This document shows, in pieces, positions 33,760-64,000 of a DNA stretch of 64,000 nucleotides. Under the pieces are notes generated by a model. That model saw only the letters and a program-made list of their open reading frames with translations. It was not told where the DNA came from and searched no databases. Within the stretch, counting starts at the first letter, position 1; every line of letters begins with the position of its first letter. The stretch lies in contig CAJINV010000004.1 in assembly GCA_905178155.1 (NCBI GenBank), forward strand, positions 4,876,619 through 4,940,618. The letters run 5' to 3'. The translations under genes and the position numbers were made by a program. The stretch is from Amoebophrya sp. A120. Its lineage: Eukaryota; Protista; Dinoflagellata.

Positions 33760-35796
33760 CTAGTACTTAGCTGCTTTTGCCAGCACGGCGCAGATGGTGT
33801 CCATGTTTTTCTCCAGCACCTTGGGAAGCATGCCGGACTCTGCAAGCATCTGCGCGAGCGGATCGTTTTGGCCGTGAGGTCTAGGCTTTGCTTTGAACCG
33901 TTTCCGGAAGATGCGACCCATTTCCGGATTGCGGTATCCACCTGAAAAGCATCCTACTCGTAATATGGCATACAACAACAACATTGCTGCAGTACTGCAT
34001 GACAAATTTCCTTTCGCGCCTAAATGTAAATCAGTAGAACTAGCAAATACAAATTCACAATTTGACTTCCCCCCTTGAAGAAAGTTGCAATGCAAGAATC
34101 ACTACCAGTAAGATGCTCTTGCGGTGGATATGCGATTCGTGGTTACAACGGTTGCGTACTGGTTGTTGAGATTGATCGGCGCGAACAGCCGCGTACACGC
34201 ATCGAAGGGCTGCATGGAGGAAAGCTGCGGACGCTGCTTATGCAATACAAATTTCCCGCACATGTACAAAATGCATGACGAATTTCGCTAATTTGGAGTG
34301 TCAAACTTGTCATGCTAAACTAGGATCGAAGCCAAGTTTTGTCATGCAGAGACCGCGTCTGCACGTGTACTGGAAAGTTACTGTGGATACTGCTTGAAGG
34401 AATTGGCCTTCATGGACTCTATCAGACCGTCCATCAGCCCATCATAGGTCAGGTGCATGGGGTCGGTGGTTGTCAGAATCTCGACCAGTGAGGTAGTGAG
34501 GGCGCCGCCGCGCCGGCCGTAGCGGTCTTCGCCGCCGTCGGACGATGTGGCGTGGTCTTCGCAACCGGAAATCATCTGGTTTTTGGGTCAGTATTGTTTA
34601 TACGGATAGGGATGAAGTCATGTAGTACGTGTAGTACACGTTCCCGTTTTTTTAGAGATATTTTGTGCCTGTAGGTCGTCGTGTAGTGACACTGTCATAG
34701 CAGTCCTTATCGACTCTAGCTCTACTTGACCTGAAGATCAAGAAACATGAGAAGCACACTGTAAAGATTTGTTTATGTTTTACGCAAATATCCGGTCTGC
34801 AGAAGAAGGGGTTCGTTTCCTCCTGCCACTCATTGTTGTGCCTCACCCACTTCCACGGCAGATCCATAGCCGTCCCGCTGTGACAGGCGTCAATGATGCA
34901 GGTGAGGCTGACGCCTTCCGTATTCCGTGAAAATTGACCATCCCCATCCACTTTGTGCATGACAAACTACAGAGGACTCTACGCCTACCTCTATGGATGT
35001 TTTGCATGACAAACTGGATAGGGATGGTTAATCTTCAGGGGGTATTCCGGCATCCGCTGCACCAGCTTCTCGAAGATGATATCATCGGTGACCATGCCAC
35101 TGCGCTGAAAATCCAGTGGCAGGAGCGTGTCGTTCATGCCGTCTTCTTCAAACCCTTCAGGATCTTCCTGTTGCGACCCGTGTCCGGAGTAGGCCATGAA
35201 GAGCGTGTCGCCCGGCGCCGCGCCGGCTGCGAGCCAATCCATCTCACGCAGAATGTTGTCGTGGGTGGGGGGAGCTGGGGTTAGTGTCAGCAGGGAAGAG
35301 GAAGTAACAAGAAGGCATACTAATGCAGATGCAATAACGATAGCGACGCATAGGTAAAGGAAATTATAGACGATAAAAGTAAATGTGATTCCCATCATTT
35401 ATTTGCTCTTCTACGGACATAAGAGATTTCTAATTTGCGAAGCAACCAGAATCAATTACAATTGTTTGCTGTCAAATAAAACAAACGCATTGTACTTCCA
35501 TCCTCGGTCAAAACGTGGAGCGAGTTTGGGTGCCAGCCAAACCTTTCCGTGAGCACCGAGTAGATGTTGTGTACGTCATTGATGCACCCCTTCAACTCCG
35601 CTTTTGTTCCCCGGTAATTGATCCCAATCAGCAAGCCCTTGTAGCGGCCCGGCGTGCAGGATCGGTAGCCCTCGGTCCCGTCGAGAGCAGGGAGGGCGTG
35701 GACTCGCTTTCCAAGCGTTCCTTCGTCCCCGCTCGCGTCACTGTCCCCGTGGCCTCCACCTCCACCACCGCCGAGACACTTCATCAACTGTTTCAT
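33760..35796 (-). CDS. Metacaspase (caspase-like C14 peptidase)
   Basis: KGLLIGINY, LKGCIND, YSGHG (catalytic His), DACHSG (catalytic Cys), MISGCED, GGALT and KQRPQLSS. Contains canonical introns plus two TA-TIR elements. Confidence 0.9.
34239..34389. mobile_element. TA-TIR intron element family A (151 bp)
   Basis: TSD CTGCT on both sides; removal restores SFKQ-RPQLSSMQPFD; homologous to 61547-61700. Confidence 0.92.
34921..35044. mobile_element. TA-TIR intron element (124 bp)
   Basis: TSD TTCCG; 30-bp TIR with 24/30 matches; removal restores QRMPE-GVSLTCIIDACHSG; two GCATGACAAA motifs. Confidence 0.93.
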
Positions 35797-38700
35797 CTTC
35801 TGGAGCAGGAGCAGTCAAACTAGGGGTGGTGCGTCGCGGACTATCTTGACTTGTAGCTGCTGATAATCCGCAACTTTCCGATTAAGGACCTCGACCTTCC
35901 CTGCTGGTGAGCCACGCCGGGTGCATGCGCCCAAGCTGTGCTTTCGATGCTGCTCCGGCAAAGGCTGTTGCAACAAAGAACACCACAGTTCGTTCTTTAG
36001 TTGCTGCTGCTCTCTCGGTGCGTGTAGTTCTATGACTTTCAAGTTGCCTAAGTATGCGAAAGTGTTCTAAGTGGCGCGACCCCGCCTACTGCTTCGCAAT
36101 GAAATTACATCCTGCTTCTCCTGGTCCTGGTAAACACAAATTTGGAGTTGTGGTCCGTTCATCCTGCGGGGCGATCTGACTCAGTTGTGGTGGTACAACA
36201 TTTCCCGCTCGAATCGGATGCCGACAAAGGTTTCCTCTCATTCTCGCGAAAAACACGCCCGGACCCGTCTTCTTTTGCAGGAGATAATAACTGAAAGCAA
36301 CCCTAGGCACTCCACTCCCTCTCGCTCCTCATGACGCTGCGTGCCAAATGCACACTTGGCCGAACTCCTTACAGTGTCCTCGCCCTGCGCTTCTTGCGCT
36401 TTTTCGGCGCCATTAAAAGTAATCTTTTTTTCATTTTGGTCTCTAGCCAGCATCACAAGAAACAAACTTGCAATGTCCACAGAGGGGCCTCCCTCACGAT
36501 GCCGACGAGGCCGAATCTTTCATAACCCGCGCGGCCTTTCTCTCTGCGTGCGGCGCGCCACGGAGGCAGAAACAGGACATGACACACACCGAATGGCGCG
36601 CCAGTCAGGAAACAAGCCAGCCTTCTCCGGACGGGGCGACGCCAGGGTATGAATGCGGCTACGGGAGAAGCACCCCCATCACGGGCAGGACGAGGCCCAT
36701 TTGCGGCGCGGGTCAACGAATGCGCTGGCGCCGCGCGCACTTTCCACTGAAGGCCACGGCGCTATGTATCTACCAACCGGGCTCGCTGGCGGGGCGGCCG
36801 GGGCCCCGCCCGTTTCCTAGCGCCGCCCATCCAAGTGTCGGCCGCCCGGCCGCGCCGCGCTTGGGCGCTGGCTGCGCCGCCCGACCGGCGCGCGGGGGTC
36901 ACATTGTGGGCCGGCGCCACGGCGGCCTAGCTGGCGGGGTGTGGAGGCGGCATCAAACGCAGACCGGCCGGGCCAAAAGTGCCGCCCGTCGCTCGGGGCC
37001 AGCCGACGGCAAAAAGCCCTGTGCTTCGAATTACCGCCAAGCTGGCGCCCGCGCCCCATGCCATGCCGCGCCATGCTGTGCGCCCCACGCCGCCCCCTTC
37101 TCGTAGGTGGGTGGCCGCCGCCCGGCGGCTGCGCAACTCTTGCCAGTGGTTTTCTATGCCTCGCACTCGCTCCTGCCGGTGGTTGCGTACCTCGCGCACG
37201 CTCTGCCCCGCCGACTCGCTGCGGGTCCCTGGCGCAACCAATGACGCGCGCGACCAGACACTGTGCGCGGAGGGCGTCCCAGGTCATGGGGCGGATACGG
37301 ATTGCCATCACGCTAGGAGTTTATCTAAAATGAAAATCTATTATCTTGCTGATACGCCCGGATGGAGAAACAAATGCAAAGAAACGGGGCGCGATGCCTC
37401 GATAAACACCAACCCCGACGCTGGGCTCTCACTCACTGACCGGACCAACCGCTTCTCCGTTTCTCTCATTCGGTCCCCTCCGTCGGCTACTCAGAGTCAA
37501 TACTCAACATAAATAAACCGACCGAAAGGAACTCGTCTCCACAAAATAAGCCTCGCTATCCACATCACGCACAGCCCTGTTAGCCTCGGCTTGCAATCAT
37601 GCGCCTCTTTTTGGCTGTCCTCACTTTCTCTCAACCACGAGTCGGCTTCCAGACTTTCGAGAGCAAGGCGATCATGCCTACAAGGGCGTAGCATTTCCTT
37701 TTCAGCGCACCAGCTCATGCCTTGCTTCCTACCTTCAGAAGCCCTACTTCCGGCGCACCAACAAGGCGCCCAATCCCACTTGTAGTTTGGAGGGCAGCAG
37801 CCGCACGGCACCACCAGGGGCGGCGGGCTGCGCTTCAAAGGCGGCCATACCGCCAACCATCCACCCAGTGGTCCGCCGGGAGGCCCAGCAGGGCTGGGAC
37901 TGCTGCCGTGCGGCGCCGGCCGTCCGACCGAGGTTGCCCGAGGCCGAGACGGCCCCCTCGCTCGGCTCCCGCTGCGTGCGCAGGCCTCCCGGCGGCGAAA
38001 CACGGAGACCGCGCGCCCGCTCCTAGCTCCCCTGCGCTGCTTCCCGGCAAAGCGTTCCGCGGAGGCGTGCGCGCGACCGCAACACGCGGGGGCGTGGCCA
38101 TGATAATGCATGGCGGGGCCACTCTATTGGCCCAGCGGCGCTGCGAGACGGCCGGAGCCAGTGCGCGGCCCGGCCGGCAGGCCAATCCTAGGCCTAGCAC
38201 AGCACTAGGGGGGCGCGTCTCGGGCGGAAAGCCTTCGGGCGGAGCCCAGGGGCCCGCGCCCTTGCAGAAAAGGGAAGCAAGGCGGTCGAGGCGGCGGCGG
38301 GGCTGTCGCGCGGGTGGTTAATTTATAAAAACCGTATACGGGGGCGCCTTATAAAAACCGCATACCGATAACGGGGGCGCCTCTCGGGGTCGGCGCGAAT
38401 GCCGCAGGCCGCGCATTCTCACAAGGCGACGGCGCGGGTGTCCTTCTCGCCGTGGTCGTGCTCGTAGGGAATGCCGCGCGCGCCCAGCATAGAAGTTGAA
38501 GCGGTCGAGCCGCCGCCGGTACTGCACGGCTTTCCACTTTTGCGGCCAACACGTCGCTGCGCCGCCACGATGATACAAGGAGCAAGAAGAGGACCCATTG
38601 GTCGCTACCTCTCTGCCACGCCAGCAGTTTCGCTGGCATGGACACTTTTTGGATCGGTCGAAAGTATCAACGTCCCTAGTAGGCATAGGCATTCGTATTC

Positions 38701-39624: not shown

Positions 39625-41819
39625 TCACTCCATCCACGTCCACTCCCCACTCAGTTCGAGCTGCAGCCCTTGCACCTCCGCTATGGGGTACTCAAATGTT
39701 ACATTCTCAACTGTTACGCAATCTGTAATACATGAATGGCAAAAGTGAAATGCAAATGGGGGACCTTGCGCGTCTTGCATGACAGATTTGGCAAAGAGTA
39801 TCAGCCTGCTTAGTCCTCTGGGAATTTGTCATGCTAGGCAGCTTGATCGCAATCGCATCGATTCTGATTGTGATTTTGCATGGCAAAGCATGCAACAGTT
39901 GAGAATGTAACAGTTGAGAACGCCATATCTGCGGAGATGCTCAGGGTTGCGGCGTGAAACGTGTCAAAGGTCCGCTGCACGTTGTTGTACTTCTTTTCGG
40001 TCTATGCATCACAAAAGTATCTTCGCACTTGTACTTCATGCATAACAAACCTGGTTCCCCAAATTAGTTTAGCATCACAAACTCCGTTTCAGTTTCTCTT
40101 ACTGGGGAGGTATTCTACCACGCAATTGCTACTAGCGCGATAGTACTTTCGCACAGGATACGATCAAGTCGTCGACAAAACTTCGCACTTCTTCGTCCGC
40201 GACTAGCCTGGCCTGCGACTCGTAAAAGTCCTCCAGGTATCAAGTGCAAACATGTGTAACTCTGAGTCTCAAAACCTCGAATGTGAAATTTGGGCATGAT
40301 GTTGGCTGGAACAACTGTAAGTGTGGCATGTGCAGCAGCAGCCAAGCATCATGACAAGCTTTCAGGCCAATTTCTGCTGCACACTGCGCATTTTTACAGC
40401 TTGCGTTTTCTTTTGCACGGCGAAGCACGCTCCTGCGCTTTTATCGTTGTTCATCAAGCAGTTCAGAATCAGACCTTGCAGAACTGCCAGACAACCAGCA
40501 TGTCAAGCTCCAGTTTCCCAGACTACCTGGCCATCATGTTTGCACTCCATACTTGATCCTCCGACCCGGGACTCGTTCCGTACGTGCCAACCCCGGCGAG
40601 GCCAAACAGATGGTGGCTATGCAATGCAAAAGTATCGTACTAGCATTGCATTACAAATTCCCGCAGCATTACAAATTGAGTTTGTAATGGTGATTTACGT
40701 TGAAAAAGATATTTGTAATGCATAAACGCAATTACTACGAGTGCGATACTTTTGCACAGGATAGTGGCTCTCCCCCGGCGAGTTGTTCAACATCCCACCG
40801 TACTGCAGCAGCGGCGACCCCTTCAGCAACGGTGATTGTTTCAGCAACTTCGTGGTGCCGCTGTTCGGATGGTTGCTGCGCTGCTGTTTCAGGTACTGTT
40901 GCGCTTTCACCGCCCGCGCCTGGATCCGTTCCGGGATGGAGGCGGTTTGAAATTCCTGGTTCGTGTTCAGCGCCGCCTTCCGCCGCAAGTCCTGGGACCG
41001 CTTGCGACTGGGGCTCGGGCTCTGGTGCTGACCACCGATCATGGTGCCAAGAAATTTCGCGGTCGGGCTCGGACTCTGCTCCGCCAGCTCTAGCTGCACG
41101 CCGCAGTAACTCGACTGGTCCCGCTCGACGAGACTCGGGTCTTGCGCCAACAAAATCTGCTCCGCCGGCGTCAAATGTTGATCTTGCTTCGGATTTTTAC
41201 CGTGCTTTCCCTTGCCCTTGTTCAATGCAGTTGTAGAACTAGAACTAGTACTCGCTCCACTGTGCAGCGCCGCCCTTGCAGCTGCTGACGAGCCGTGGTT
41301 CCGCGTGCTTGTCGGATTCGCGCCCGGCTTTTGGTTGTGCACAAAGGCGGACTCCAGATCGGACTGCATCTTCCGAAATTCCTTGTACATTTTCCCGAGG
41401 CTGCGGTCCGGATCGACTTGTCTGGACGAGCTGCTTTTTGATGTACCCTTCGCACTCTGCAGCAAAGAAAGCTTCAGCGACGCGTTCTGTGGCTGGTTAC
41501 CGACAGCACTCCCAGCCGCTGCAGAAGTAGAAGTTGCTCCTCGGGTCGCGAGGAAGTTGCTGGCAGCAGTACTCGAGGATGATGATTTTCCTCCATTTGT
41601 ACTAGACGAAGCGTTACTCAACCCCGTTGCGGAACGCAAAATCGACTTCGTTCCTGGTTTAATACCATCGGGCTGCTGCAACGTGGAGCTTTGTCCACCG
41701 CTTTCCTCACCGGACGTGACGGACTGCTCGTGGGCATGAATCCCCTCCCGGTTGTAGTTGAACAACTCTTGATGAAAGTTGCTGAGTTCCTGGTCAAATC
41801 CTGTGCAAAAGCATCGCAC
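39625..41819 (-). CDS. Hypothetical protein (3' part) interrupted by four TA-TIR elements
   Basis: Sequential removal of element + 5 nt gives one frame: ...PGESH-HLFGL...PGSED-LEDFYESQARL...DDLI-EKKYNNVQRTF...ISA-EVQGLQLEL. Confidence 0.65.
39682..39927. mobile_element. TA-TIR intron element family F (246 bp)
   Basis: TIR built of TTCTCAACTGTTACA units; TSD TCCGC/TCTGC; same ends as 59127-59383. Confidence 0.88.
40003..40160. mobile_element. TA-TIR intron element, diverged family B (158 bp)
   Basis: TATGCATCACAAAAGTAT ... TACTTTCGCACAGGATA; TSD CGGTC/CGATC; frame restored. Confidence 0.8.
40238..40551. mobile_element. TA-TIR intron element, family D-like (314 bp)
   Basis: TATCAAGTGCAAACATG vs rc TATGGAGTGCAAACATG; flanks CCAGG/CTTGA decayed, but the +5 rule restores the frame. 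Confidence 0.75.
40618..40763. mobile_element. TA-TIR intron element family B (146 bp)
   Basis: TSD GTGGC; TATGCAATGCAAAAGTATCGTACTAG ... CGAGTGCGATACTTTTGCACAGGATA; close relative of 61310-61459. Confidence 0.92.
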
Positions 41820-41972
41820 TAAGCGTGTAAAGGTAAACGCTGTTCCTGGATCGATGCCAGCTCTGCTGCTTTTTATTTTTTCACTAGCTTAATCTGCACC
41901 ACAAATTTCATAAGCAAAATTCCTCATCCGAGCATTATTCCAGTACACTTACACGATCTACCATGCAGCTTG

Positions 41973-44900
41973 TTAAGCTTTTGCCATGCATAGATCAGGT
42001 GACACGATGAACGAGGTCCCGCCGGTCCCGGTCTCGCTTATGGATGTGTCAGAGTTGAAATCGACAAATCGACAAAGTTGAAATGATTTGTCATGCTAAA
42101 CCGACCGAAACCACAACACAACCTGTAAGGGCACCTCACCGCAGATGGTTCGGCCACCAGGTCGTGGAGTCAGGCGGACCGAAGCCATCACCATCATCCT
42201 CGGGCACATGATCCCACTTACGCCAACTTTTCCTTACTTTCGCACACAGTCCTCACTTCGCCAACATGCGTTTAGCGTTCGCCAACGATCCTTACTTTGC
42301 GCCAACAAACCATACTTTTCGCCAACAAGTCCAACTTTTCGCCCACTGAGTACGTTTAACGTTCGCCAACGATCCTTACATTGCGCCAACGGATGCGTTT
42401 ATTGTTCGCCAACAAACCTTACTTTTCGCCAACAAACCAACTTATTGCCAACAGAGTACGTTTAACGTTCGCCAACGTACCAACTCATTGCGCTCACGGA
42501 CTGTGCAGGAGCCTACCAGGCAAACTGCTATAAGGAAGCAGCAGCCTGCAGCTGACTCCATGCATACGAAAATTTGCTATTCGGAACCCAACGGCCACCG
42601 CAGGCACAAATACAGTCTGCGATGAGGTTTAGAAAGGTCCGGTAAAATTAGGAGGTGCAGGTCCGGGTTAATGCACCTAACGCCGCGCAGTCAGGTGTCG
42701 CCAGAGAGTATAATCGCCGCAGATATGCTGGGGCTCGGGGCACCAGGAAAAGTTTTGACAGATGAGAGCGGGCCGAGAGAACTGGCAGCCTCAACGGCCT
42801 TTGACGCATTGTATCAGTGTCATGACCAACACAAAATCACAGCAGGACCGCAGAATACAAACGATGCAAAGGCCAGACGCCCCGAGGGCGATAAAGAGGA
42901 AAAGGCGGTCCCGCCAACAAAGGCAAAATATCAGGGACAGCCGAGGCGCTACTACCACCTGTCTCAGTTCATCTGTCAATTGGTAGTTACATAGTGGTGC
43001 CCGCGCGCGTGTAGCCGCAGGTGGCTGAAGGCTCTTGCGCGGATGAATGCAAGCACGAGGACGTCGTGCAGAGAGCAGGGCGCCGCTGAGGCCGGGACGT
43101 AATTGTAGAGAGAGATGCCGCTCTAAGCACAGCGCGTCGTTCTCAGCGGTCGGGTGCCGCGGGTTATCGCACTCGCCATAGCGCCGAGACGTTGACGACC
43201 ATCTGCTAAACGTCGATGGTGTGGTGATGAGACGGGGTTGGAGGCGTGGACAGTCCCCGACTGGCTACGGATCGAGGATGAGCACCATGACGACAGGGAC
43301 AGCGAGCCTCTGCGAGAGTTCGCAGAGATCGGATCGAGTCGAGTGAGTGGGCGCTCCGTCAGGACCGCTCTGTCACGAGATTGACAAAACCTGCGGCACG
43401 CCCCCCCCCGAAGGGCAGGGTTAAGAACCTTCGCCGTGCTTGCCCTGGATCGATCCGCCGGTAGCTGCAGACCCTAGTCCCGGATTATAGCGACGCCCAT
43501 CTTGGACTTTATCTCGTTTGTTTTTGCCCGGGGTGACCAAGCGCTCCGAAAACGAAAGATCGATAGCGAGATGCGAGTTTACGTATGAGCGTGCTGCACC
43601 GGATTGCCGTAGATCTGGATCGAGAAGGAGCTACCGAGTCAAGGACGGAGAGTCGAGCACTCCGAAAACGAGAAACCGAAAATGAGATACGAGCTTTTCT
43701 TTCACGTGAGCGCTCTGCGCAGGCTGTGCTAGTAGGTCAAGATCGAGAAGGACCCACCGCGTCAAGACCGAAGAGTCGAGCTTTCCGAAAAACAAACGAC
43801 CGACGTCGGGCACTCCGGAGACACAGGAGTGCCGTAGATCAGGTTCGAGAAAGAAGTACCGAGAAACCGCAAGCGAGGTCCGAGTTTGTCATGCATGTGA
43901 GCGCTCTGCGCTGAGCTTCCTGCGCGGGACTGCCGAGGATCAAAAACAGTTTGGAACTTCGAGAACTTTTTGAGTCAGAGTGCTAAACCCGCCGCGCTGT
44001 CCACGCGATTATGCCGAAGTCTCCTGTCGAAAAGCGCCAAAGTTACCGACTTCGCTCGGCGGGTTAAGGACAGCATTTGCCACACAGGTCGCAGCCATAC
44101 AGCGTCCTTGCATAAAATGCGATGCAAAAAGTGACTCCATTGCAAAGGACGCAAGGGAGGCAGATTATAGTCCTGGTAAGGGTCAAAAGTTGGACTGCTG
44201 ACTAGCATGACAGAAGGCAGCTCTTTTGCCCTAAACCGCATGACAGACTCGCTTCCAGGACCGGGAAAATTTGTCATGCACCGACTACAAACTGCAGGTC
44301 TAACTGGCATGGGCATCCATTTTATGCATGACAAATTATTTCAACTTTGTCGATTTCAAACCTGACACTCCCATATCGCTTTCCTCCAGCTGAATGCGCA
44401 CCGTCTTCTTTTTACTAGCGGAAGCGCCACCGTTTTGCTCCAGCAGCTGGATTGGTGACAATGGTTGGTCTTTAGAGGAAGTTGTTGGAGAGCCAGTTGA
44501 TTTTCTCGCCATCCAGCTATTGCGCTGCTGCTGCAGGATGGCCTGCAGAACCTGCTCCGCCTCCTCTTGGCGGCGTAGCGAGTCGGGACTCAACTCCGGA
44601 TCGCTGTCAATTGGGATCGCTGCTGTGCCGGCGGTATTGGTCGGATCTGGTGGAGGTTGGAGTTCAAATTTGTCACTTCTACTCCTCTTGTTCATTACAA
44701 ACATACGAAAGATGGCAATGCGATCTTTTATGATGCTGAAAACACTAAACGTAAATCTGAAGCTGCCCACCGACGACGTCCTAGGTGCTGTGCTCGATGA
44801 AAGAACAAACAATACCCGTGGCTCCTGGATAAAAACTCCCCTTCTGTTTCTCCCGTTCCCGTTCCAGGAGTCGCGTCTGCTCCAGGTTGCGCAGGTGCAT

Positions 44901-45266
44901 CGTCAGCTGCAATTTGATTTCGTGCAGGAAGCATTCCAGCTCCCGGTCCCGGTCGTACCACCAGCTGTTAAGCTTCTCCAGCAGCGAGTTCAGCTTGGTC
45001 ACGGGGTTTATTATCGTTGTCGATGGTGTTGAGGAAGTGACGGAGGATCCTGCCAAGCTTCCAGCTTTGAAATACGGGACGAGCCAATGCGGAAGTTGCG
45101 AGGACTTGTCCTTGGTCCGGCAGATCTTGTCGTAGTTGCGGTACAGCCAGTTCCACCCCATGCGGACCTGCTTCTCACTGTGCTTGTAGAGGACAAATTG
45201 GTACACAAAGTTCGGTAGAACCTGAAATTTTAGACTCAGGAGAAGTTCTCTACACCTAAAAACCAT
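41973..45266 (-). CDS. Hypothetical protein (5' part), spanning the 2.3-kb element; may be the same gene as 39625-41819
   Basis: ORFs 45266-44781 and 44812-44376. Element removal gives IQLEES-ETGTGGTSFIVSP. Confidence 0.45.
42220..42483. repeat. CGCCAAC-based tandem repeat inside the long element
   Basis: More than 10 CGCCAAC cores; higher-order unit GTTTA(A/G)CGTTCGCCAACG at ~42270, ~42354 and ~42460. Confidence 0.85.
43540..43960. repeat. Degenerate direct repeats inside the long element
   Basis: Recurring GCCGTAGATC, GATCGAGAAGGA, CGAGAAACCG, GTGAGCGCTCTGCGC and AGTCGAGC blocks. Confidence 0.6.
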
Positions 45267-45588
45267 TATACAAATAAACGTTTCCGGGTTTTGTTCAATT
45301 TTACAAATCAGCGCCCTAATCTACGAGCGAAATCAAATAAACAATCAACCGAGTCAGGCGATGCCTTTTCAGACGAACAAAACCTCAGCGATGCCTCGGA
45401 ATACCCGCCGAAGTATCGCAGATTGATTTTGCAGGAGCTCGCTGGCCTTTCAACAGACAAAACTTGTCTGGCAAGAAATCGGGCAGCTTCTTCGGTTCAT
45501 GGGGCTCGCTTTTTTGTAAAATTCAGACTTAGGATGACAATTTTGGATCCTCTCAGACCCAGACACTTTCGCCTTGATGCTGGTACAC

Positions 45589-45649
45589 GAGAGCCGGAGT
45601 CTAGCTCCTTTTCGAATTCAATTCGCAAAGGAGCTAGACTCCGACTCTC
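45589..45649. repeat. Near-perfect hairpin (30-bp arms, 1-nt loop)
   Basis: GAGAGCCGGAGTCTAGCTCCTTTTCGAATT-C-AATTCGCAAAGGAGCTAGACTCCGACTCTC. Confidence 0.85.
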
Positions 45650-45699
45650 CCAGGTTTTTGGGATTTTCGTGTCATCACATTTCGGCCAAAATGACCGCT

Positions 45700-45890
45700 T
45701 CCGGGTTTGCGCCGGATTTGTCCCGGGTTTGCAAATATTTTGTAAATATTTTGCAAACATTTTGCTATTTCCTGACAGCTAGCGCCGACCTGTAATGGTC
45801 GATATCTTAGCGCCGAAAAAGCACCCGAAAAAGTCGGGCGCTTTGCAAAATATTTGCAAAATATTTTGCAAATCCGAAGCAAACCCGGGA
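45700..45890. repeat. Inverted-repeat block of TTTGCAAAATA-type units
   Basis: TCCCGGGTTTGCAAATATTTTGTAAATATTTTGCAAA ... TTTGCAAAATATTTGCAAAATATTTTGCAAATCCGAAGCAAACCCGGGA. Confidence 0.7.
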
Positions 45891-46204
45891 GCGATCTTGC
45901 GTTCGCTTTCTCGCTCCTCTGTAGCATTCACGCAAAGAATTGGCTTCTATAAATCTGAGCTGTGGAAAGCGCGCAGCACCATCGTGAAACATTTTCAACG
46001 ATGTGCGTTCCACGGGCGCACTGGCACTACGCAGTCGACCTTACTAGTGGTTTGCTGTGGAGGTAGATTCTAAATGAGGACGAGATAGAGCAGAGAAGGG
46101 CGGTCGCTGATGGAGACCCCACCTAACACAAGGGGGATGAAAAGAGGCAGGAAAAGTAGGCCCCCATGGGAAAAAGGTTCCCCCATGCAGTGCAGGAAGG
46201 GCAC

Positions 46205-47458
46205 CTATACTAAGGGGTGCTGAAAAGCATACCTCCTAAGGGCTGTTTTGTGGTGCTTGTGTTTTCTTTCACTTTGTAAAACTGCACAAAACCCGGAAAT
46301 ACAAAGATGCATAATGGTTTTTATAAACGTCCTGAAAACACGACGCAAGAACTTCAAGTTCTTGCGTCGTGTTCTTCTTGGCCATTTATTTTGTACTTGC
46401 TTCATTATCGCCAACAGCATGCATCTTTCTCGTTCTCCTTCTCCATGTAGAACAGTGGATCTTCTAGCTATCAAAAACAATAACAAATTAAATTCTTCTA
46501 CCTCTTCAGAGTGCAGCGTGAATTTCCTTCCCATCGGCAGGTCCTTGATTTGTTCTTGGAGCAACGCTTTTTTGATTTTCTCCGGTAAGTAGGAGAAGAA
46601 GCAGAGCTTGTCCAAAAAATGCGCACAGTGTCGTGGAATCAAATGGTCGTCTGCGCTTTTCGTGGAGGAAGCCATGGGGGACGCGAGGGGAATGGGTTCC
46701 GTACTAGCTAAACCATCTTCATTGCCATCAGCGAGACTGAGATCATCCGGACCTGTAGCACCATCTTCTGTTGCCGCTGCAGCTCTTGATGCTGTGGGAG
46801 CACAAGCAGGGTTCTTGTTCCGTTCCTCCGGTACAACGACCTCAACATCGTCGTTGGCGGATCCGAGCAGTTGTGCCATGATGTCCGCGTCGGAGAGAAA
46901 GTAGAAGTTGCTCTGACTCCGCCGTGCCACTTGGTCGGTGCCGGCGCCTGGGGACTCCTGGTCGTCGACAACTTCTTCAGCGGTATTCTTGCTGATTTTT
47001 CCGTCATCCTCTGCGCCAGCGTCGCCCTGTTCTTGTTGTATACCAACATGACCTCCCGTAGAAGAAGTTATGCCGGTCACTATTGATGCGTTCTCTTTCT
47101 CCTCGTCCGCCGCTGTCAAAGCGTGCATGGCGTCCACGCGCTCTGTTATTCGGTCGAACACCGCACGGATTTTTGGCACCGGATCCCCCTGAAAACCCGT
47201 GGAGGACGCGGACGATTTGCTAGGGCCGCTTGCTCCTGCATTTTTAGCACCATTTCTCTCCTTCTGCTGGTGCTCAAAGCCGGTCGACGCTGTCGTGGGC
47301 GACGTTGCAGCTGGAGCTCCGCCACCACGTGCTGCAACGGCGAGTGCACTGTCGGGGGTCTCGCCTGCTGTGGCGGCTGCTTCAGTCTTCGTGCCTATTT
47401 CGCCCTCGGCACGCTGGAACCGCTCCTCTTCATCCTCAAGCTTGAGCAGGAAATCCAT
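46205..47458 (-). CDS. Hypothetical protein
   Basis: 417-aa ORF; acidic disordered N-half and helical C-half. Confidence 0.5.
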   Translation of the reverse strand: MDFLLKLEDEEERFQRAEGEIGTKTEAAATAGETPDSALAVAARGGGAPAATSPTTASTGFEHQQKERNGAKNAGASGPSKSSASSTGFQGDPVPKIRAVFDRITERVDAMHALTAADEEKENASIVTGITSSTGGHVGIQQEQGDAGAEDDGKISKNTAEEVVDDQESPGAGTDQVARRSQSNFYFLSDADIMAQLLGSANDDVEVVVPEERNKNPACAPTASRAAAATEDGATGPDDLSLADGNEDGLASTEPIPLASPMASSTKSADDHLIPRHCAHFLDKLCFFSYLPEKIKKALLQEQIKDLPMGRKFTLHSEEVEEFNLLLFLIARRSTVLHGEGERERCMLLAIMKQVQNKWPRRTRRKNLKFLRRVFRTFIKTIMHLCISGFCAVLQSERKHKHHKTALRRYAFQHPLV

Positions 47459-50043: not shown

Positions 50044-53196
<3,153 letters not shown>

Positions 53197-55594: not shown

Positions 55595-56575
55595 CAGAAA
55601 TGATTACAGTAAAATTTAGCCGATACATACCAACATTTGTACGCAGAAAAAGAGTTCTGCGACTCTAACTCTTGTAAAAAGCGGTGCTCGTGCTGATATG
55701 TTGCCCCGTTTGTTCCACCACATCTAACTGCGCACACTCGTCTTAAATTCTGCTTACGTATTCTTATACTTGTTGACCACCTGCCACTGCCTCTTGATCT
55801 GGAATAATGTCTACACGAACCACTCCAACTCGAACTTAAAATGGAACGAAAGATCATCACAGGTTGCGCCCAACATGAATCCTGATCATGCCGATGTTGA
55901 CGAAGTTATTGCGTACCTATGTAATATTACTTAACGAGATCTCTATCTTTTCGACATTCACGACATTGCTTGCCAGAAAATACTTTCGAAGAAAAGACTT
56001 CTTCCGCCCCCACAGCCAATGTAACAAATTGCATATCTTCACTTTGTTCAAACCCTTCTACATTGTAAATCATCTCGTCCACATAGTAGTTCATCATTCA
56101 CGGACGGTCTTGTCGTTATCATATACATACGATGCACAAGAACATCACATCATTTACTTTAGTACTAGCAGGTAGTGCTGCCTGCATACGAATTAGTTTT
56201 TCTTGTTTGAGCTTAGAATAAACCTAGTGTTAGCGACACTGACAAAGAGTTTGATCAGAAAAATAAGAATTATGATACATCAGATACAAACAGAAACAAT
56301 CTCACGTTTCGAAGATGCTGATACTGATAGATACATACTGAAGCAGATAAATCTGTAGTTGTACTAGCATGGCGACAAGCGGCACTATCGGACCGACCAT
56401 TCAAGTAGTAGAATTCTAATGCGTTTTCCAACCTAAAAACTAAGTTAATATTCAAATTCTCGTGCGTATTTGTAAAATATACCGCTGCAAGAAATCTCAA
56501 ATCAGTGCGATGGATTTTTCCGTTCTTGCGTCACGTGCTACGTGACGCAAGTGGTGATAAAGTTAAATGCAAAAC

Positions 56576-59500
56576 TTACTTCTGTACTATAGTCTCCTCC
56601 ACTTCTTGTTGTGCCTCCACCTTCCTGTTTTTCGGTTTTATTGAGAGGAAAAATCCCCCCTCCCCATATCGAAAAGGTATGTTTGCAAAAATTTGTGTTG
56701 CGGATTTGAGGTCACAAATCACATTTGTCTTGCAAGAAGGCAAACCCAAAGAATCCGCTGCCTTAAGGAGGCGATTTGTAATGCTGTTTCACCTACATGG
56801 CAGGCCTCTCTTATGCCAAGAGCCTACAACAAAACACCCCTACGCAGGCTGAGGCTTTGCCTGTAGTGCCTCTGTGCAATACAAAGCTGATTTGTGGTCA
56901 CAAATCAGCATCACAAATTTCCGTTCTGATATGGGGAGGGGGGATTTTTCATTCTGATAGGTTTTGCGGCCACAACATAGCGAAACCCCTGGTCGCCGAG
57001 GAACACCGTGTGGAACACGGCCGCTGTTCCCGGTACGACGAACATCAGGACTGTAAATACCTGCCCTATCCAAGTGAAGAACATACAACTCCCCGCCCTC
57101 GTGGTCGTCCCTCTCGTTCTTGGTTTGTCATGATACAAAATGCGGCCTAATATTCTTTACGCATTGCGTTGCCTCTTGGCACTGTTTGCATGACAAGATC
57201 TAGCAGGAGCAGCTCGGACTACGACTACAGCAGGTACTACACTCCTGTCCAGTAGATTTCTTCTCGTCATGGTGCAAAGCCTGTATTTTTGCAGCTGTCG
57301 CGTACTGTACTAGTACAACTTAGTGTTATATTTTATTTTTAATTGCTGTTCATACAATAGTACAAATGAAGGGGAACATCAAGGGGAGCTGTAATTTTTG
57401 CACTTTCATATGCCCCCAGACGGCGACATTGAGCAGAGTCGAGAGGGAAAGCACGACGGTCGAGAGGCATGTCAGTTTGCGAAATGCGCACGCGGTGAAA
57501 GTAGGACTTTCATTTTTGAGGCCGCTGGTGTTGTGCTCCACTTCTTCTTTGTGTTCTCGCAACTGGTTTTTTTCGTCCTGCTGTTCCGCCTCCGAAGCGG
57601 AAGAAGCGCTGGTGGAAGGAAGCATCGTGCTCCGATTGTCGTAGAAGTCCTTGGCCGCCGCGAGCTGCTCTCCGACGTACGGCGCAGCGCCGGCCGGAGA
57701 TGCAGGCGGCAGCGCGAGGAGGACAGGAGGCCCTGCGAGTACCGGGTTGTGGTGCCGATCCAGTACGATCCGCGTCTCCATGTGGTCGACGAACTCGAGC
57801 TCAACACCGCCGCAGCAGAACAAATAGCCCCATGGATGACCGGAGAAACTAGCACACGATGACGATGAGTGTTCTACTTCATCTTCCCCAGCATCAGCTC
57901 GCTCTGTTCCGCCTCGCTGCTCTACTGCTGTACTACGTCGATCTTGTCCCATCATGTTCTTGCCGCTCGATTTATTACTTTCCACATTGTTGTTCTTCCC
58001 GGTGGTTGACGCGCTGGTGCCGACGTTATCAGCGACTTCTTTCGTCTGTTGTAGTTCTTCTCCCGCCGCCGATTTTAAAATTCCCTGGTGCAGCTGCTTT
58101 TGTTCTAGTTGCCAGACAGGAAAGGCTTTGCCCTCTTTCGTATTTTTCAACGCGTACACGAGCAAGGACACGTAGCACATGGTGATGAGGACAAAGGTGA
58201 AACCCAACGCAAGCGAAGTAATCGTACCAAGTGCAAAAGTATCGTACTCGTAGTAATTGCTATCGTGCATGACAAATATCTCTTTTTAGGTGAAATAGCA
58301 CTACGAGTTGCATTTTTGTTCTTGAAAAAATTTGTGATGCAATTTATACTAGTACGATACTTTTGCAATGCATAAAGCGGCAACACTTGCAACAACAGCG
58401 GCAGACCGCAAGTGTGAAGAAACGCGACGGCGCCGGGAACCATGCCCATCAGAATGCACAGGCCGAGGAGCATGTCCATAACCAGCCTGTCCCACGCGAT
58501 TCGAATCAGGAGCAGGTGGGTGAGGACAGAAGTCTTGAACAGTTGCCAGCTGCTGGTCGTCGATGAAACAACACCCGGTGGTCGCACGGTGGGCGACTTT
58601 CTGGACGTCGAGGACAGCAACATGCGAAGTTGCCACCCCGCTAATCGTAGCTGGTTCAGGACCAAAAAGCTCACTTCCCCGATGCCCTGCAGGTGCCGCC
58701 GCGATTGCGTGTACCGTGCCGCTACGTTCGCAAAGTACGCACTCATCCGGGAGGACGAAGTAGATCCTTCGCTCTCCACGATAAAACTAGCAAACGGTAG
58801 GTAAATCGCGACGACTTTGAAGGCCGGCAGGGGAAACCGCAACATTGTGGGATCGTTATTGTAGCAGAGAGCTGCAGATGTTGAGGAGGAAGAAGCTACA
58901 ACTCCTGCGGAAGCTGCAACAGGAGCACGACGTCCACCTGGCGCAGGGGCACCAACAACTCCTCCGCAATGCTGTATGAGGGCGGAGGATTCATCTTGTT
59001 CATCAGGGTTGTTCACCAGATGATGATCCACCTGATGTTGGTGCTCATGATCTTCAGGATCGCCAGGAGCTTCTACTTCGAGCGACGTAGACGTATGTAG
59101 CCCCTGGAGGTTCCACAGTTCGCGGGTATGGCACTCTCAAACGTTACATTCTCAGCTGTTTTTACACGATTAGACGTGCAAAATGACCATGAGCCACCAG
59201 ACGAAGATCAAGCTGCTTCGCGTGACAAATTATCAAAGGGCCAAACAGTATCTAAATCCTCTGTGCCAAATTTATATATGATGCAAGCTCATTTCTTGCA
59301 AGCTTGCCCCTTTCATCCGTACTGCTCCTTTAGCGTCACAAATCCACGTAACAGTTGAGAATGTAACAATTGAGAACGCCATAGCGGGTGAGCATGCCTT
59401 GCAGAAAAGTGTGGAGGTCCTCGGAGATGACGTCGGGAGCAAAGCCGCCCATCCGCTCGACAAGTCGATGCGTCGCGGTGTAGGATATGAAAGCCTCACC

Positions 59501-62500
59501 AGGTTGGAAATCCTCAAAGTGGAAATAATTTGTAATGCAAAAAACGACTCCAGGTAAAGCGGCATTTGTAGTCCGCGCATGACAAATTTCCCGGGCACTT
59601 CTTAAAGCATGTCTGTCATGCAGGTTAAGGCAAGGGGGTGCCCTTCTGTCGTGCTAAGCAGCACTCCAATTCTTCACCCCTGGCAGGACAATAGTCGGCC
59701 TCCGTTGCGTCCTCTGCAATACAGTCTTTTTTGCGTCGCATTTCATGCATCACAAATCATTTCCACTTTGAGGATTTCCATTGTTCTGAGGCTTTCATAT
59801 AGGAGCTCATCAGCGGTCGAGCGGAGGGGGAGACCAGACCGAGCTTGTAGCGCTCGTACATCCTATCACAGGAAAAAGTGTTAACGTTAACGGTTTTCAC
59901 AGATTGCAGTCATGCATCACAAATGTAGCCCAATATGCATGCTATGCATGACAAATTCTGACACGTCTTGTGATGCATTTCAGCATCACAAATTCCGTTA
60001 ACGTTAACACTTTTTGTTGTGATACATCCAAGCGCCTGCCGCGCCGACCTTGCTCAAGCCGGGGACGCGGTCCCAGTTGCGCAGCGGCTCCTGCACCGCT
60101 TGCCAAAACCTCCACGCACGGTCTGAGGCCGGCTCCTGCAGTGCCTGAAACGTCACGCAGGGAAAGTACTGCCGATGAAACAGCGTGTCAGCGTCGCAGT
60201 TGGTAATGAAAGTGCGGTCCGGGTGCCACCGCAGTAAGCTACAAGAACTTGTTGGAGAAGTTTGTTCGTTTTCAGCTGCACCAGGACCGGATGATGGTGC
60301 TCCATCGCTTCCATACGTGGAGGAGACGCTGTTCGTTATTTTTGTTCTAATTGTATTACTCCAAGTTGTTCGATGCCAATGTTGATTAAATTTCTCTCTC
60401 TCTTTATTTCCGCTGCAGCAACTTTTGTTCAGTACAAGCTAATCATTGTTCTCAAGAACATCAACAAGCAGTAGGGAACGCCTGCTTGTCGTGCAGCTTT
60501 TTGTTAGAAATAGATACTCGATCATGAAGCTATCCACGCTTTCATCGCGCATAAAATAAAATCATCGAAGCATCTAACTATTATCATTTCATTTCAAACA
60601 GATTCCAATTAGTACCTGCTGCCATTGTTCAAGTTCATCATGGTCCTCGTCTTCCCAAACTGCCCCTTCTCCTCACGACCGGGCAGCAGCTTTTCACATT
60701 GCGTTGGATCGTTCAGAAAACGCTGCAGTTCTAGCCACGCTGCCTGCAATATGACAGTGCACAACTCCCCCTTCCCCCCATTTGTGATGCAAAGCCTTGG
60801 TCCGGTCCCATGTGGCACTGTTTGCATGACAACTTTCGGAAGCCCAAACAGTACTACATTCGGCTCGTGAAGAACTTGTCATGCATAGGATCCAAATGCG
60901 TTGATGTTTGTATTGCTGCTCATGCCATGCAAGTGAGGGGGAGGGGGACTTGTGCACTCTCATATGCACATTTGAACTCTTGCCGGCCACCTCGCCGGGA
61001 AATTGGTTCTCTTTGTGGTAGCTGAGAATAATCTTCGCGAACTGGTGGCCGTGTCTGCCTTTTAGCCTTTCCGCTTTTTCGACTGCAGCCGGGCCTTCGC
61101 GCTCCTCCATGGCCAGCACGAGCACCATGGGGAGAGCTACAACTGGATGGTGTAGTGCTTCGATTTGGTGGTCATCGTCGCATGGGAGCTGCTGGCTTTC
61201 GTTTTCATCTTGTTGTTCCGGATTTTTTTCTTGTAGTTTCTTGCTCATCGTCCCGGCGGTGAAGTGATTTTTGTCCAGGTCCTCGCTCATCTGCTGACTC
61301 TTGATGTCGTATGCAATGCAAAAGCATCGTACTAGTATGAATTGCATTACAAATTGGCTTCGCATTACAAATTGAGTTTGTAATGCGGATTTGCCCTAAC
61401 AAAAAGATTTGTAATGCATAAATGCCATTAGTACGAGTACGATACTTTTGCAGTTCATATGTCGTGCTTCAACACCAAGTTGTTAATCGTGTCGGATACT
61501 AGGTCGCAGTCTTCCTTGTAACAGGGGATGATCACCGCATGCAGCGTATGCAATACAAATTTCCCGTACATGTACAAGATGCATCACAAATTTCACGAAT
61601 TTTGAGCGTCAAACTTGTCATGCGAAACTAGAAGCGAAGCCAAGTTTTGTCATGCGGAGACCGCATTTGATGTACGTGTACGGGAAATTTACTGTGGATA
61701 CAGCAGTCCGTCTTGCAATGCCTTCCTCTCTTTGCTGGAGTGCACAAATTCTCCCAGTTTGCGTTCCCATATGACACCCTCAGAATGGAAATCCTCAAAG
61801 CGGAAATAATTTGTGATGCATGAAATGCGACACCAAGAAGACCGTATTGCAGAGAACGCAATGGAGGCCGACTATTGTGCTTCTATGGGTTCAGAATTGG
61901 ACTGCTGATTAGCATGAGAGAAGGGCACCCCTTTGCCTAACTAGCACGACACCAGACACGTTCTGAATGACCGGGAAATTTGTCATGCGCCGCTTAGAAA
62001 TGGCGCTTCAACTGGAGTCGTTTTTTTGCATTACAAATTATTTCGATTTCCACTTTGAGGATTTCCATTCTGAGGCTGTCATATCCCAGTCGACTTTCAG
62101 CCACGCGTCCATCTTATCAAATGCAATTATGTCTGTGTCTGGAAGGTTGCAACTTGTGATGCTATGTTTCGACTCTAAAAAGATTTGTATTGCATGACCA
62201 GCAAGGGGAGCCCAGTTTTTGCTACGTGGGGAGGGCATTTGTCATGCGGAGCAGGCATCAGGAAGCCTTCTAAAAATCTGTGATGCTATGTCCCGCATTC
62301 CAGACCTCATGGGTCATGGCAACCCTGCGTGACAAACTTGTATTCTTCCAGACCCAGACATATTTGCATTTGATACATCTTCCACAAGCACATCGCCGCG
62401 CCAACAGAAATATCAAATGCAAAAATGTCTGGGTCTGGAAGATTCGGGGAGTTTGTCATGCACAACTGTACATGACCCAAAATGCCTGTGATGCATGCTG

Positions 62501-63733
62501 TAGCATCACAGTTCTCGCAAAGCCTTGGTAATGCCTATTCTGCATGAGAAATGCCCTCTCCGAGTGGCAAAAATTCAAGCAGCTTTTGCTGCTCATGCAA
62601 TACAGATTTTTCTATCGTCTACAGGTAGCATCACAAATCCCATTCTTTCCAGACCCAGACATTTTTGCAATCCATACGTGATCGTCGAAAGCATAAAGAC
62701 CACAAAGAACTGACAGGGTAAAATGGCATACTCGAACCACAACCGGGGAAACGCGTCGAATTGGTAGGTGAGGAGGTGTATCAAGTGTAAAAATGTTTGG
62801 GTCTGGAAGAGTGCAGACTTGTCATGCACATTTTCCATGACCCATGAGGTCTGGAGTGCGGGACCTAGCACGACACATTCTGTGAGGCCTCTACCATGCC
62901 TATCCTGCATGAGAAACCGCCTCCCAACTTGGTCAAAAGTGAACAGCTTTTGGCACTCATGCAACACAGATTTTTGCATGCTTCAGATTTACCATGACAA
63001 GTTGCCACCTTCCAGACCCAGACATTTTTGCAATGCATAAGGTAGATGCCGAGGTAGGTCAACACGAAGATCAAATACACGCAGAGCGGAACGGTCCGGG
63101 TATCAAATGCAAATGTGTCTGGGTCTGGAAACTTGTGATGCTGGGTGGCGTATCATGAGGAGGCAACAAGTGCTGGTGCAGCATGACAAGTTTCAGAGCT
63201 TCCAGGTGTTGCCTATTCAGCATGACAAACCACGTTTCTGCATGGCAGAAAAGTGAGGCTCTTGGGTAACGTGCATGACAGATTTAAGAGTCATGCCAGA
63301 CAAGCATGACAAACATGCATTCTGCCAGACCCAGACATTTTTGCAGTTGATACCGGGCAAGCAATGCCAACGTCGTTCCGGAGGAGACGGATTGGGGAGA
63401 GAGAAGTTCTTGTCCTTGATGTAGCTGTGGTTGGTGACCAACTGCATGATGTTGAGCGTGGTCATAGTACTCAACATGTTGCTTGAGCTTGCTCTCCTGC
63501 ACCACGCCTGCAGTTGATGTACTACTTTGTGGGGGCGTGGACGTCGCATAGAAGTCCGCCTTCGACGTTGTGCCCTGGCTGCGACGCCGGAGGTCCACCT
63601 TCGACGTTGTGCCCTGTTTCATCTTCTGTTGGGATGGTCGTGAAGAACTTTGCAGCTGCCAGAAGTGCGTCGACGTATTTTCAATGCGACTGCGAGGACG
63701 AGCGGTAGGAACTACGGCAGGCACAGGGCGCAA
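56576..63733 (-). CDS. Membrane glycosyltransferase family 2 protein, split by 14 TA-TIR elements and one GT-AG intron
   Basis: Reconstructed frame contains HAVIIPCYKED, LAMEERE, PGEVAGKSSN, TNCDADT (DxD), VISEDLH (catalytic ED), ARYTQSRRH (QxxRW-like), TM helices at both ends and YVVAAKP near the C-terminus. Start uncertain. Confidence 0.85.
56639..56959. mobile_element. TA-TIR intron element (321 bp)
   Basis: TSD GGTTT; TIR core GAAAAATCCCCCCTCCCCATATC; restores VAAKP-KNRKVE. Confidence 0.92.
57067..57410. mobile_element. TA-TIR intron element, family H-like (344 bp)
   Basis: TSD TGCCC; shares TGGCACTGTTTGCATGACAA with 60750-60964; restores AVWGQ-VFTVLM. Confidence 0.85.
58225..58374. mobile_element. 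TA-TIR intron element family B, reverse orientation (150 bp)
   Basis: TGCAAAAGTATCGTACT TIR; TSD AATCG/AAGCG; restores QVLP(L/I)-TSLALG. Confidence 0.9.
59127..59383. mobile_element. TA-TIR intron element family F (257 bp)
   Basis: TSD GCGGG; restores GMLTR-ELWNLQ. Confidence 0.92.
59486..59799. mobile_element. TA-TIR intron element family C (314 bp), reverse orientation
   Basis: TSD TAGGA; TIR core TGGAAATCCTCAAAGTGGAAAT; restores LMSSY-TATHRL. Confidence 0.93.
59864..60024. mobile_element. TA-TIR intron element family G (161 bp)
   Basis: TSD CATCC; TIR TATCACAxxAAAAAGTGTTAACGTTAACGG; restores GAWM-YERYK. Confidence 0.93.
60750..60964. mobile_element. TA-TIR intron element family H (215 bp)
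   Basis: TSD TGCAA/TGCAC; TIR TATGAxAGTGCACAAxTCCCCCT; restores GKSSNVQ-AAWLEL. Confidence 0.92.
61310..61459. mobile_element. TA-TIR intron element family B (150 bp)
   Basis: TSD TGTCG; restores VLKHD-IKSQQ. Confidence 0.93.
61547..61700. mobile_element. TA-TIR intron element family A (154 bp)
   Basis: TSD CAGCG/CAGCA; homolog of 34239-34389; restores DGLL-HAVIIPCYKE. Confidence 0.92.
61770..62083. mobile_element. TA-TIR intron element family C (314 bp)
   Basis: TSD TCCCA; restores KVDWE-RKLGEF. Confidence 0.93.
62115..62375. mobile_element. TA-TIR intron element family D (261 bp)
   Basis: TSD CATCT; TIR TATCAAATGCAAxTATGTCTGxGTCTGGAAG; restores CLWKM-DAWLK. Confidence 0.93.
62411..62676. 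mobile_element. TA-TIR intron element family D (266 bp), TSD decayed
   Basis: Clear family D TIRs; flanks AGAAA/CGTGA; the +5 rule restores MLSTI(S/T)VGAAM. Confidence 0.88.
62779..63039. mobile_element. TA-TIR intron element family D (261 bp), opposite orientation to 62115-62375
   Basis: TSD AGGTG/AGGTA; restores LGIYL-LTYQF. Confidence 0.92.
63101..63352. mobile_element. TA-TIR intron element family D (252 bp)
   Basis: TSD CCGGG; restores LLAR-TVPLCV. Confidence 0.93.
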
Positions 63734-64000
63734 ACTTCAAGAGCGTCATGATGTAGATTTTCCCCATGGTAGTCTTCAGATGCAGATCGTCAAATAAATC
63801 GCACTTATACTTGATTGAACTACGACACAACGAACCTGAGGGGGATCAGATTCGTGTGACCTGCTTGAACAAAACATACGTCTCTACTACTTTTTTAGAA
63901 GAAACATTTTTCCGCAGAACTGCTGCAGGGTCAACTTCTGCTTCTGCATCCAATTCTACTCGTTTTCGCCGAAGAGTAAGGTTCATACATCGTGAAACGA

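Follow-up and report, generated by a model that had tools for sequence, protein, structure and literature searches.

Why do inserted elements with dissimilar ends share one short internal word? This question is raised by a stretch of 64,000 nucleotides (nt) of the Amoebophrya sp. A120 genome (contig CAJINV010000004.1, positions 4,876,619 to 4,940,618), hereafter called the window, in which the 9-mer TTGTVATGC, read on either strand, recurs in short elements with differing terminal inverted repeats (TIRs), many of them lying within genes. The original prediction took this word for the binding site of one trans-acting factor, either a transposase or an RNA-binding protein or small RNA marking the elements for excision, and attributed their orientation-independent removal to its presence on both strands. 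We propose that the motif is a subterminal site at which one protein common to all families, most likely a transposase that would move them, would bind double-stranded DNA, and we give this reading a probability of about 55%.

The shared site and the elements that carry it

The window contains 63 matches to TTGTVATGC, compared with a mean of 2.38 and a maximum of 7 in shuffled sequences (0 of 100 shuffles reached 63), and 51 of the 63 lie between positions 34239 and 63352. The example counts of the original prediction are exact, with two matches on each strand in 61310-61459, three and one in 59864-60024, and two and none in 34921-35044. Screening for inverted ends bordered by a direct repeat yielded 23 elements of 124 to 2,337 bp, which begin with TAT or TAC, finish with ATA or GTA and are flanked by 5-bp repeats. 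They were hand-picked among the candidates after the motif list was already known; an automatic, motif-blind finder recovered 21 of the 23 and made no call in 680 kb of Markov control sequence. Over their 7,311 bp these elements hold 50 matches (6.8/kb), and two further matches fall in two TIR pairs that lack a clean duplication. The other 11 are spread over the 56,109 bp left (0.20/kb), several of them within decayed relatives. The predicted scarcity in exons was confirmed, no match being present in 12 long open reading frames (ORFs) of the window (12,968 bp) and 13 in 212,969 bp of long ORFs from related loci. Scarcity in canonical introns is weakly tested, with no match in nine intervals picked by eye, only one of which has verified CT..AC ends.

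The enrichment was replicated in 147 loci of one metagenome assembly, obtained by a scan with the TIR of one family and amounting to 650 kb after removal of overlaps; the query family is over-represented in this set (185 of 424 elements). The motif-blind finder called 400 elements, among which six haplotype pairs are counted twice, and none in the Markov control. At least one exact motif is found in 371 of the 400, and their 99,141 bp contain 823 (8.3/kb). The 550,548 bp outside the elements contain 396 motifs, only 60 of them within the 476,222 bp without similarity to any element (0.13/kb). The motif is thus not equally frequent in non-element DNA, being about 65-fold rarer there. The middle base in the metagenome elements is C in 433 cases, G in 215, A in 175 and T in 10, and the actual site is broader than the 9-mer, approximately WGCAWBASARRT, with about 4.4 copies per element. 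It may resemble Rbfox, ApiAP2 and Sox-Oct sites. The 424 elements shorter than 500 bp form 41 clusters, and when 7-mers were sought de novo in these with family weighting, the most widespread ones were mostly fragments of the site. The only multi-copy cluster without any site is cluster 17 (L071:9592-9771 and L019:10251-10430), which is one element in two haplotypes and lies in an open frame.

All families share TAT-S-N6-AAA ends and 5-bp duplications, and they are one kind of element. The TIR signature, TAT followed by seven variable bases and AAA, fits the 46 window ends as well as the family-weighted profile, one pair having been entered with shifted coordinates. In 64 pairs called without regard to the duplication, its length is 5 bp in 53 and a 6-bp repeat occurs in none. 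A TA target duplication of the Tc1/mariner type was considered and rejected: TA is the element's own terminus, the 5-bp duplication lies outside it, and two empty sites agree with this. Read coverage of the elements in run X1 is hundreds to thousands of times the single-copy depth, indicating many copies, and the median identity between nearest neighbours is 86%.

Comparison of haplotypes revealed two presence/absence polymorphisms with clean empty sites, L019:4931-5080 and L019:17275-17557 versus L071, each empty site having a single copy of the 5-bp target. The first of these lies in a 99% identical haplotype block, yet its duplication matches at only 4 of 5 positions. At another site the two haplotypes contain different members of one family (L019:19332-19440 and L071:896-998, about 80% identical) between flanks that are 4-7% diverged, each member being equally close or closer to copies elsewhere; this single case suggests replacement by gap repair or gene conversion. 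An apparently identical element between haplotypes diverged by 5% was dropped, as it lies in a wider identical patch. The empty sites and the site with different members are evidence of mobility at the DNA level.

A paired site and its possible readers

Among 76.7 pairs of sites in the same direction, 23.1 have a spacing of 31-33 bp, against 3.3 expected and at most 11 in 2,000 random layouts, and such a pair is present in at least half of the members in 12 of the 15 families with at least three copies. Three turns of B-DNA measure about 31.5 bp, and because the spacing corresponds to three turns, we infer that the paired sites would be bound on one face of the double helix. A tandem duplication behind the 32-bp spacing is disfavoured, since the spacers differ between families (identity 0.36, versus 0.31 when shuffled) and no 32-bp unit extends beyond the site by inspection. 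The first site lies 35-55 bp from the element end in 51.0 cases versus 23.0 expected (maximum 34 in 1,000), and outward-facing first sites fall at 35-38 in 16 of 44 family ends and at 44-48 in 14, with 1 between, that is, in clusters about one helical turn apart. TIR position 4 is a weak version of the site and scores as one in 10.4 of 82 weighted ends, as does no other position before 35. A near-universal site with a fixed three-turn spacing argues for one protein serving all families, and supplies both a bait and a target for mutation. The original prediction of a shared site for one trans-acting factor is supported, and the fixed spacing favours a transposase over an RNA-binding protein or small RNA. 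The TIR pattern of the elements had no match in viral contigs and none in prokaryote genomes; 56 viral loci matching the paired-motif pattern showed neither similarity to the elements nor TIRs with a duplication, and were treated as chance matches.

The strand of the sites bears on a reader of RNA. The mRNA strand was assigned with a codon model, and the calls made within a locus are consistent for 37 of 43 loci. The families lie either way round relative to mRNA, including those with sites on one strand only: family 3 has all its exact sites on one strand, and its copies in coding sequence lie 8 one way and 11 the other. Among 217 elements in coding context, 177 carry both site orientations, 26 one only, 12 the other only and 2 none, and these 26 and 12 lie in open frames. 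One-strand elements are thus found in both orientations in coding sequence, and therefore a motif on both strands is not needed for removal, contrary to the cause originally given for it.

It is quite improbable, in our judgement, that the motif acts in RNA, by being recognised by an RNA-binding protein or small RNA or by pairing of opposite copies that folds the intron. The fixed orientation in pre-mRNA expected of a single-stranded signal is not seen, and such a reader would need to accept the word together with its reverse complement. UUGU-type sites are slightly more frequent in the mRNA sense (244 versus 198 exact sites, and 26 versus 12 one-orientation elements), and the site contains UGCAUG, a splicing-regulator word; the base following GCAU, however, is G in only about half of the sites, and the ACAA half is conserved too. 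In 252 predicted folds, motif bases are paired in 75%, versus 60% elsewhere, and 41% pair with another copy, opposite copies pairing in the families that have them, so that the motif may have a role in RNA structure, but in families 3 and 8 all exact sites lie on one strand and their copies cannot pair mutually. A sharp spacing of 31-33 bp with free spacers would moreover be unexpected for flexible RNA. A search of the window against Rfam gave no match. The motif thus separates the hypotheses: reading at the DNA level fits, and the single-strand RNA reading fits poorly.

Shared descent was weighed against the conservation of the sites. In clusters of at least five copies, motif columns are better conserved than the other internal columns in 10 of 10 (0.83-0.99 versus 0.66-0.90), and 26 of 33 sites belong to the best-conserved tenth of the internal windows. 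The excess persists within CA/TG dinucleotides (0.125 versus 0.214), a control that rules out CpG decay as its source. The motif being more conserved than its surroundings within families, descent from one recent ancestor without excess conservation does not apply. Old common ancestry of the families is likely. A motif without any reader, left over from a single ancestral element and staying alike through recent descent, gene conversion between copies or low mutability, would accord with the end structure common to all families and with the replaced copy at one site, a sign that copies exchange sequence. Profile searches connect many families as long as the sites are present, with 2 of 210 links when the sites are masked versus 32-36 under random masks; this test loses power, masking also cutting own-family recovery by half, to 198 of 388. 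Against a relic, copies are divergent, yet sites exceed their flanks in every family tested, the spacing is preserved and the spacers are not, and the number, order and orientation of sites differ between families. This explanation is most improbable and already largely refuted by the excess conservation.

A transposase as reader would work as follows. Two protein units would bind the same face of the DNA, 35-55 bp inside each end, and cutting would occur at the universal TAT-S-N6-AAA tip beside the bound sites. Copies losing their sites would stop multiplying, so that the sites would be conserved across families while other sequence drifts. The candidate enzyme would be integrase-like (Ginger/IS3EU-like) or hAT5-like, because of the element ends and the 5-bp duplication. 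Removal from RNA would depend mainly on the paired ends and not on the motif; in 8 of 9 families (z 1.9-8.0), the two TIRs of a copy resemble each other at positions 14-30 more than permuted pairs do, an agreement that subfamily structure and the calling rule could also yield.

Several observations weigh against a transposase as the reader. The orientation of the site relative to the element end differs between families, the resemblance of the TIR to the site is only partial, and UUGU-type sites are mildly in excess in the mRNA sense (509 versus 441, p = 0.03, the copies not being independent). Domain searches over about 0.7 Mb gave no transposase; they covered 12 ORFs of the long element at 42039-44375 (2.3 kb), 12 ORFs of longer elements and 91 of the 166 ORFs of at least 250 amino acids in the loci. 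The text of Farhat et al. (PMC7789003) likewise reports no putative transposase in A120, which is taken there to rule out general transposase-mediated mobilisation. Lastly, among 756 sites identified without regard to the C of GCA, that base is intact in 753. Such near-invariance hints at selection on inserted copies, since selection acting only through transposition would not be expected to keep a single base less variable than the decaying termini. Cytosines at TIR positions 16-30 are changed in 15 of 636 cases as compared with 3 of 756 for this C (p = 0.0014), and the terminal T and A of the elements vary in 25 and 19 of 447, indels included. The excess constancy was seen in one of 12 columns tested and against an uncertain neutral baseline, given that the duplication of one recent insertion is already imperfect and that two haplotypes differ in the family member present at one site. 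Dating of decay after insertion was attempted and abandoned: duplication and TIR mismatches are uncorrelated (rho 0.06), non-coding copies are too few (11 of 423), and haplotype pairs are nearly without substitutions, their pooled totals having been set aside because misaligned rows were among them.

Removal from RNA and the elements of the window

RNA evidence came from contigs of runs X3 and X4, taken as RNA because they skip introns. The main gene concerned lies on the minus strand at 56011-63939; its product has no assigned function, two of its exons have no Pfam hit, and 14 elements lie inside it in both orientations. The putative-RNA contigs jump 58220-58374 directly, which corresponds to one element plus 5 nt, and in 56634-57410 they skip 675 nt, or two elements plus 5 nt each. 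Of 59122-63352 they retain 1,284 nt, which is what is left of the interval after subtracting 11 elements, each with 5 nt, and an ordinary GT-AG intron of 287 nt on the minus strand (60329-60615), which lacks the motif and exactly fills the remaining length difference. The 11 elements include relatives in opposite orientations. The inner junctions of this interval rest on length arithmetic rather than on base-by-base alignment; together with the two in 56634-57410, 13 elements are removed by such arithmetic. In 58375-63939 the frame is open when the elements, each with its 5 nt, and the GT-AG intron are omitted. For the metagenome copies, removal was inferred from frame restoration and not from RNA: taking the element out restores the frame at 239 of 352 junctions, versus 103-109 for out-of-frame removals, by length modulo 3 only. 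Every window element with a strand call, 11 in number, lies in a minus-strand gene.

Such removal might instead be what the sites serve. A host DNA-binding protein, possibly a domesticated transposase, could read the paired sites on chromatin and mark the element for removal from nascent RNA, with copies selected to keep their sites; we consider this rather unlikely. The DNA-type geometry and the freedom of strand fit it equally well, as do the presence of at least one site in 215 of the 217 coding-context elements and the C of GCA kept below the variation of the termini. The older copy at 18178-18528 has worn ends yet four exact sites, and the element at 62411-62676 is still removed despite an unrecognisable duplication. 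Site number is, however, equal in coding and other contexts (4.4 versus 4.5 per element), two site-less elements lie in open frames, and the G, A and other core columns vary about as much as the TIR (G 20 of 773; pooled 0.028 versus 0.029). Nor is mismatch in the duplication a clean clock, as the recent insertion with one such mismatch and its lack of correlation with TIR mismatch indicate. We know of no precedent for a splice signal read on DNA, which counts against a host factor of this kind. In its favour, U1 small nuclear RNA is reported as undetected in A25 and A120 in the text of Farhat et al. (PMC7789003). It is unlikely, though conceivable, that both functions are joined in one protein, which would move the elements by binding the paired sites and, itself or in a domesticated form, would mark copies on chromatin for removal from RNA in either orientation. 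If true, the splice code of these non-canonical introns would be partly written in DNA, and a single factor would both spread and neutralise new introns by the tens of thousands in a genome in which no U1 was found.

The individual elements of the window, apart from the gene described above, are as follows. Near the left side lie a 290-bp element with a 5-bp duplication and motif copies with 1 mismatch only (17246-17535) and the older copy at 18178-18528, a relative of the 59486/61770 family with a poor duplication and a right end placed by eye, whose exact motifs are at 18273, 18325, 18396 and 18458. A decayed relative of the 260-bp family (22544-22751) has one exact motif at 22704. Duplications matching at 4 of 5 positions flank elements of 355 bp (23970-24324, motif at 24018), 196 bp (33935-34130, motif at 33997) and 246 bp (39682-39927, motif at 39826), the last being opposite in orientation to its relative at 59127-59383. 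The 151-bp element at 34239-34389 has a same-direction pair at 34307/34339, 32 bp apart, and a 1-mismatch motif at TIR positions 4-12; the 124-bp element at 34921-35044 has its two exact motifs, at 34957 and 35004, on one strand only. In the 158-bp element at 40003-40160 an exact motif occupies position 4 of the left TIR (40006), with an inner pair at +38 (1 mismatch) and +70. A TIR pair without a clean duplication (40238-40551) has 1-mismatch motifs only, and a 146-bp member of the 150-bp family (40618-40763) has motifs at 40648, 40666 and 40713. A 154-bp element at 50239-50392 has a pair at 50284/50315, 31 bp apart.

The long element at 42039-44375 (2,337 bp) combines a perfect 5-bp duplication with ends of the 59486/61770 family and has motifs at 42088, 43886, 44271 and 44326. 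Short tandem repeats were seen by eye inside it (about 42230-42480 and 43540-43900), and it has no recognisable ORF. It is resembled by a 1.1-kb case among the metagenome loci, L018:505-1608. Another called element, L014:288-838 (551 bp), encodes a host-like peptide in its middle and is probably two adjacent 150-bp elements that the finder called as one, or else a composite unit.

Within the gene at 56011-63939, elements of 321 bp (56639-56959, motifs at 56776 and 56908) and 344 bp (57067-57410, motif at 57188) are missing from the putative-RNA contigs by length arithmetic, and the element that these contigs skip directly is 150 bp long (58225-58374, motifs at 58267 and 58332). The 257-bp element at 59127-59383 has only 1-mismatch motifs. 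Two 314-bp relatives, 82% identical, lie in this same gene in opposite orientations, at 59486-59799 (motifs at 59530, 59577 and 59747) and 61770-62083 (motifs at 61811, 61980 and 62028). Between them are elements of 161 bp (59864-60024, four motifs including a pair at 59914/59946, 32 bp apart), 215 bp (60750-60964, motifs at 60782, 60824 and 60876), 150 bp (61310-61459, four motifs including a pair at 61378/61409, 31 bp apart) and 154 bp (61547-61700, motif at 61581 and a pair at 61615/61647, 32 bp apart). The most abundant family is represented by a 261-bp element at 62115-62375 (motifs at 62154 and 62239), opposite to both the copy at 62411-62676 (motifs at 62453 and 62628, removed by length arithmetic) and the 261-bp element at 62779-63039 (motif at 62819). 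The last element, of 252 bp, is at 63101-63352, with motifs at 63133, 63181, 63220 and 63304.

Raw RNA reads of run X9, otherwise sparse here, cover 61770-61883; 586 of them exit the element end into one foreign flank and 247 stop at 61883 in a probable template-switching primer. Some copy of the 61770 family at a different locus may contain the start of an RNA that reads outward. At 45690-45890 there is another kind of inverted-repeat structure, lacking the motif, inside a region (45220-46499) that a putative-RNA contig skips, and at positions 1-300 units of about 60 bp are arrayed in tandem, the array closing with an inverted copy. Among the other genes, all on the minus strand, a thioredoxin reductase gene was found by protein search at 29927-33131, with a thioredoxin domain upstream, and metacaspase-like and papain-like protease genes were recognised by eye at 34100-35800 and 51000-53150. 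The ORFs of two GC-rich blocks, 28000-29170 and 36480-38560 (0.58 and 0.62 in 2-kb bins), have no Pfam hit.

Known elements and known designs

The elements correspond to the introners of Amoebophrya sp. A120, which according to the text of Farhat et al. (2021, PMC7789003) end in TAT, seven variable bases and three or more A, are flanked by short direct repeats (5 bp in the legend of its Fig. S19) and form non-canonical introns. The lengths listed among 40 of the 58 A120 rows in supplement 8 of Gozashti et al. (2025, PMC12130899), about 106, 149, 160, 209, 260, 278, 305 and 320 bp, match our family medians of 109, 150, 161, 211, 262, 281, 308 and 322 bp. A protein search, by contrast, pointed to no close relative, its best match being at 50% identity. 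The published text describes only terminal repeats, and the families were grouped by ends alone, their movement and splicing being named as open questions (PMC7789003); the shared internal motif, its 31-33-bp pairing and its distance from the end are added here. In the text consulted, an internal shared motif is not described in PMC7789003 (its supplement has no TTGT/ACAA match), PMC12130899, PMC11282704 or PMC12501133. The elements are thus already known, and the paired motif is real and replicated and, as a cis-element, probably undescribed.

As to the type of element, one A120 family is recorded as 'Ginger; 5-bp TSD, TA/TA termini', TSD being the target-site duplication (PMC12130899, supplement 8, row 580). 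IS3EU/GingerRoot elements share the TA..TA termini but are described in the parts of the sources consulted (PMC10045372, PMC6839031) as having usually 6-bp duplications, as against 0 of 64 here and 5 bp in 53. A 5-bp duplication occurs in hAT5 (PMC12730594) and some Ginger2 (PMC10045372, PMC6839031), a likeness that concerns ends and duplication. The nonconventional introns of Euglena are similarly abundant, non-GT-AG and paired at their ends, with an excision machinery given as unknown in the text of PMC12501133; their code lies within a few bases of the boundaries, whereas the motif here lies at least 35 bp inside and has DNA-like spacing.

The closest design is that of subterminal transposase-binding repeats, which are present in the ends of hAT, CACTA, Mu and Tn7 elements. 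Lemi1 proteins bind the TIRs of Emigrant miniature inverted-repeat transposable elements and, cooperatively, subterminal repeated motifs, as stated in the text of PMC1636448. Common to both are short repeated sites inside the ends of non-autonomous elements, conserved above their flanks and loosely resembling the termini. Here, in contrast, one site is shared across dozens of families with different TIRs, the pair is fixed at three turns, the elements are introns, and binding is predicted. If the sites serve transposition only, they would be a new instance of this known design; if they also govern removal from RNA, they would constitute a new link between a transposon protein and splicing.

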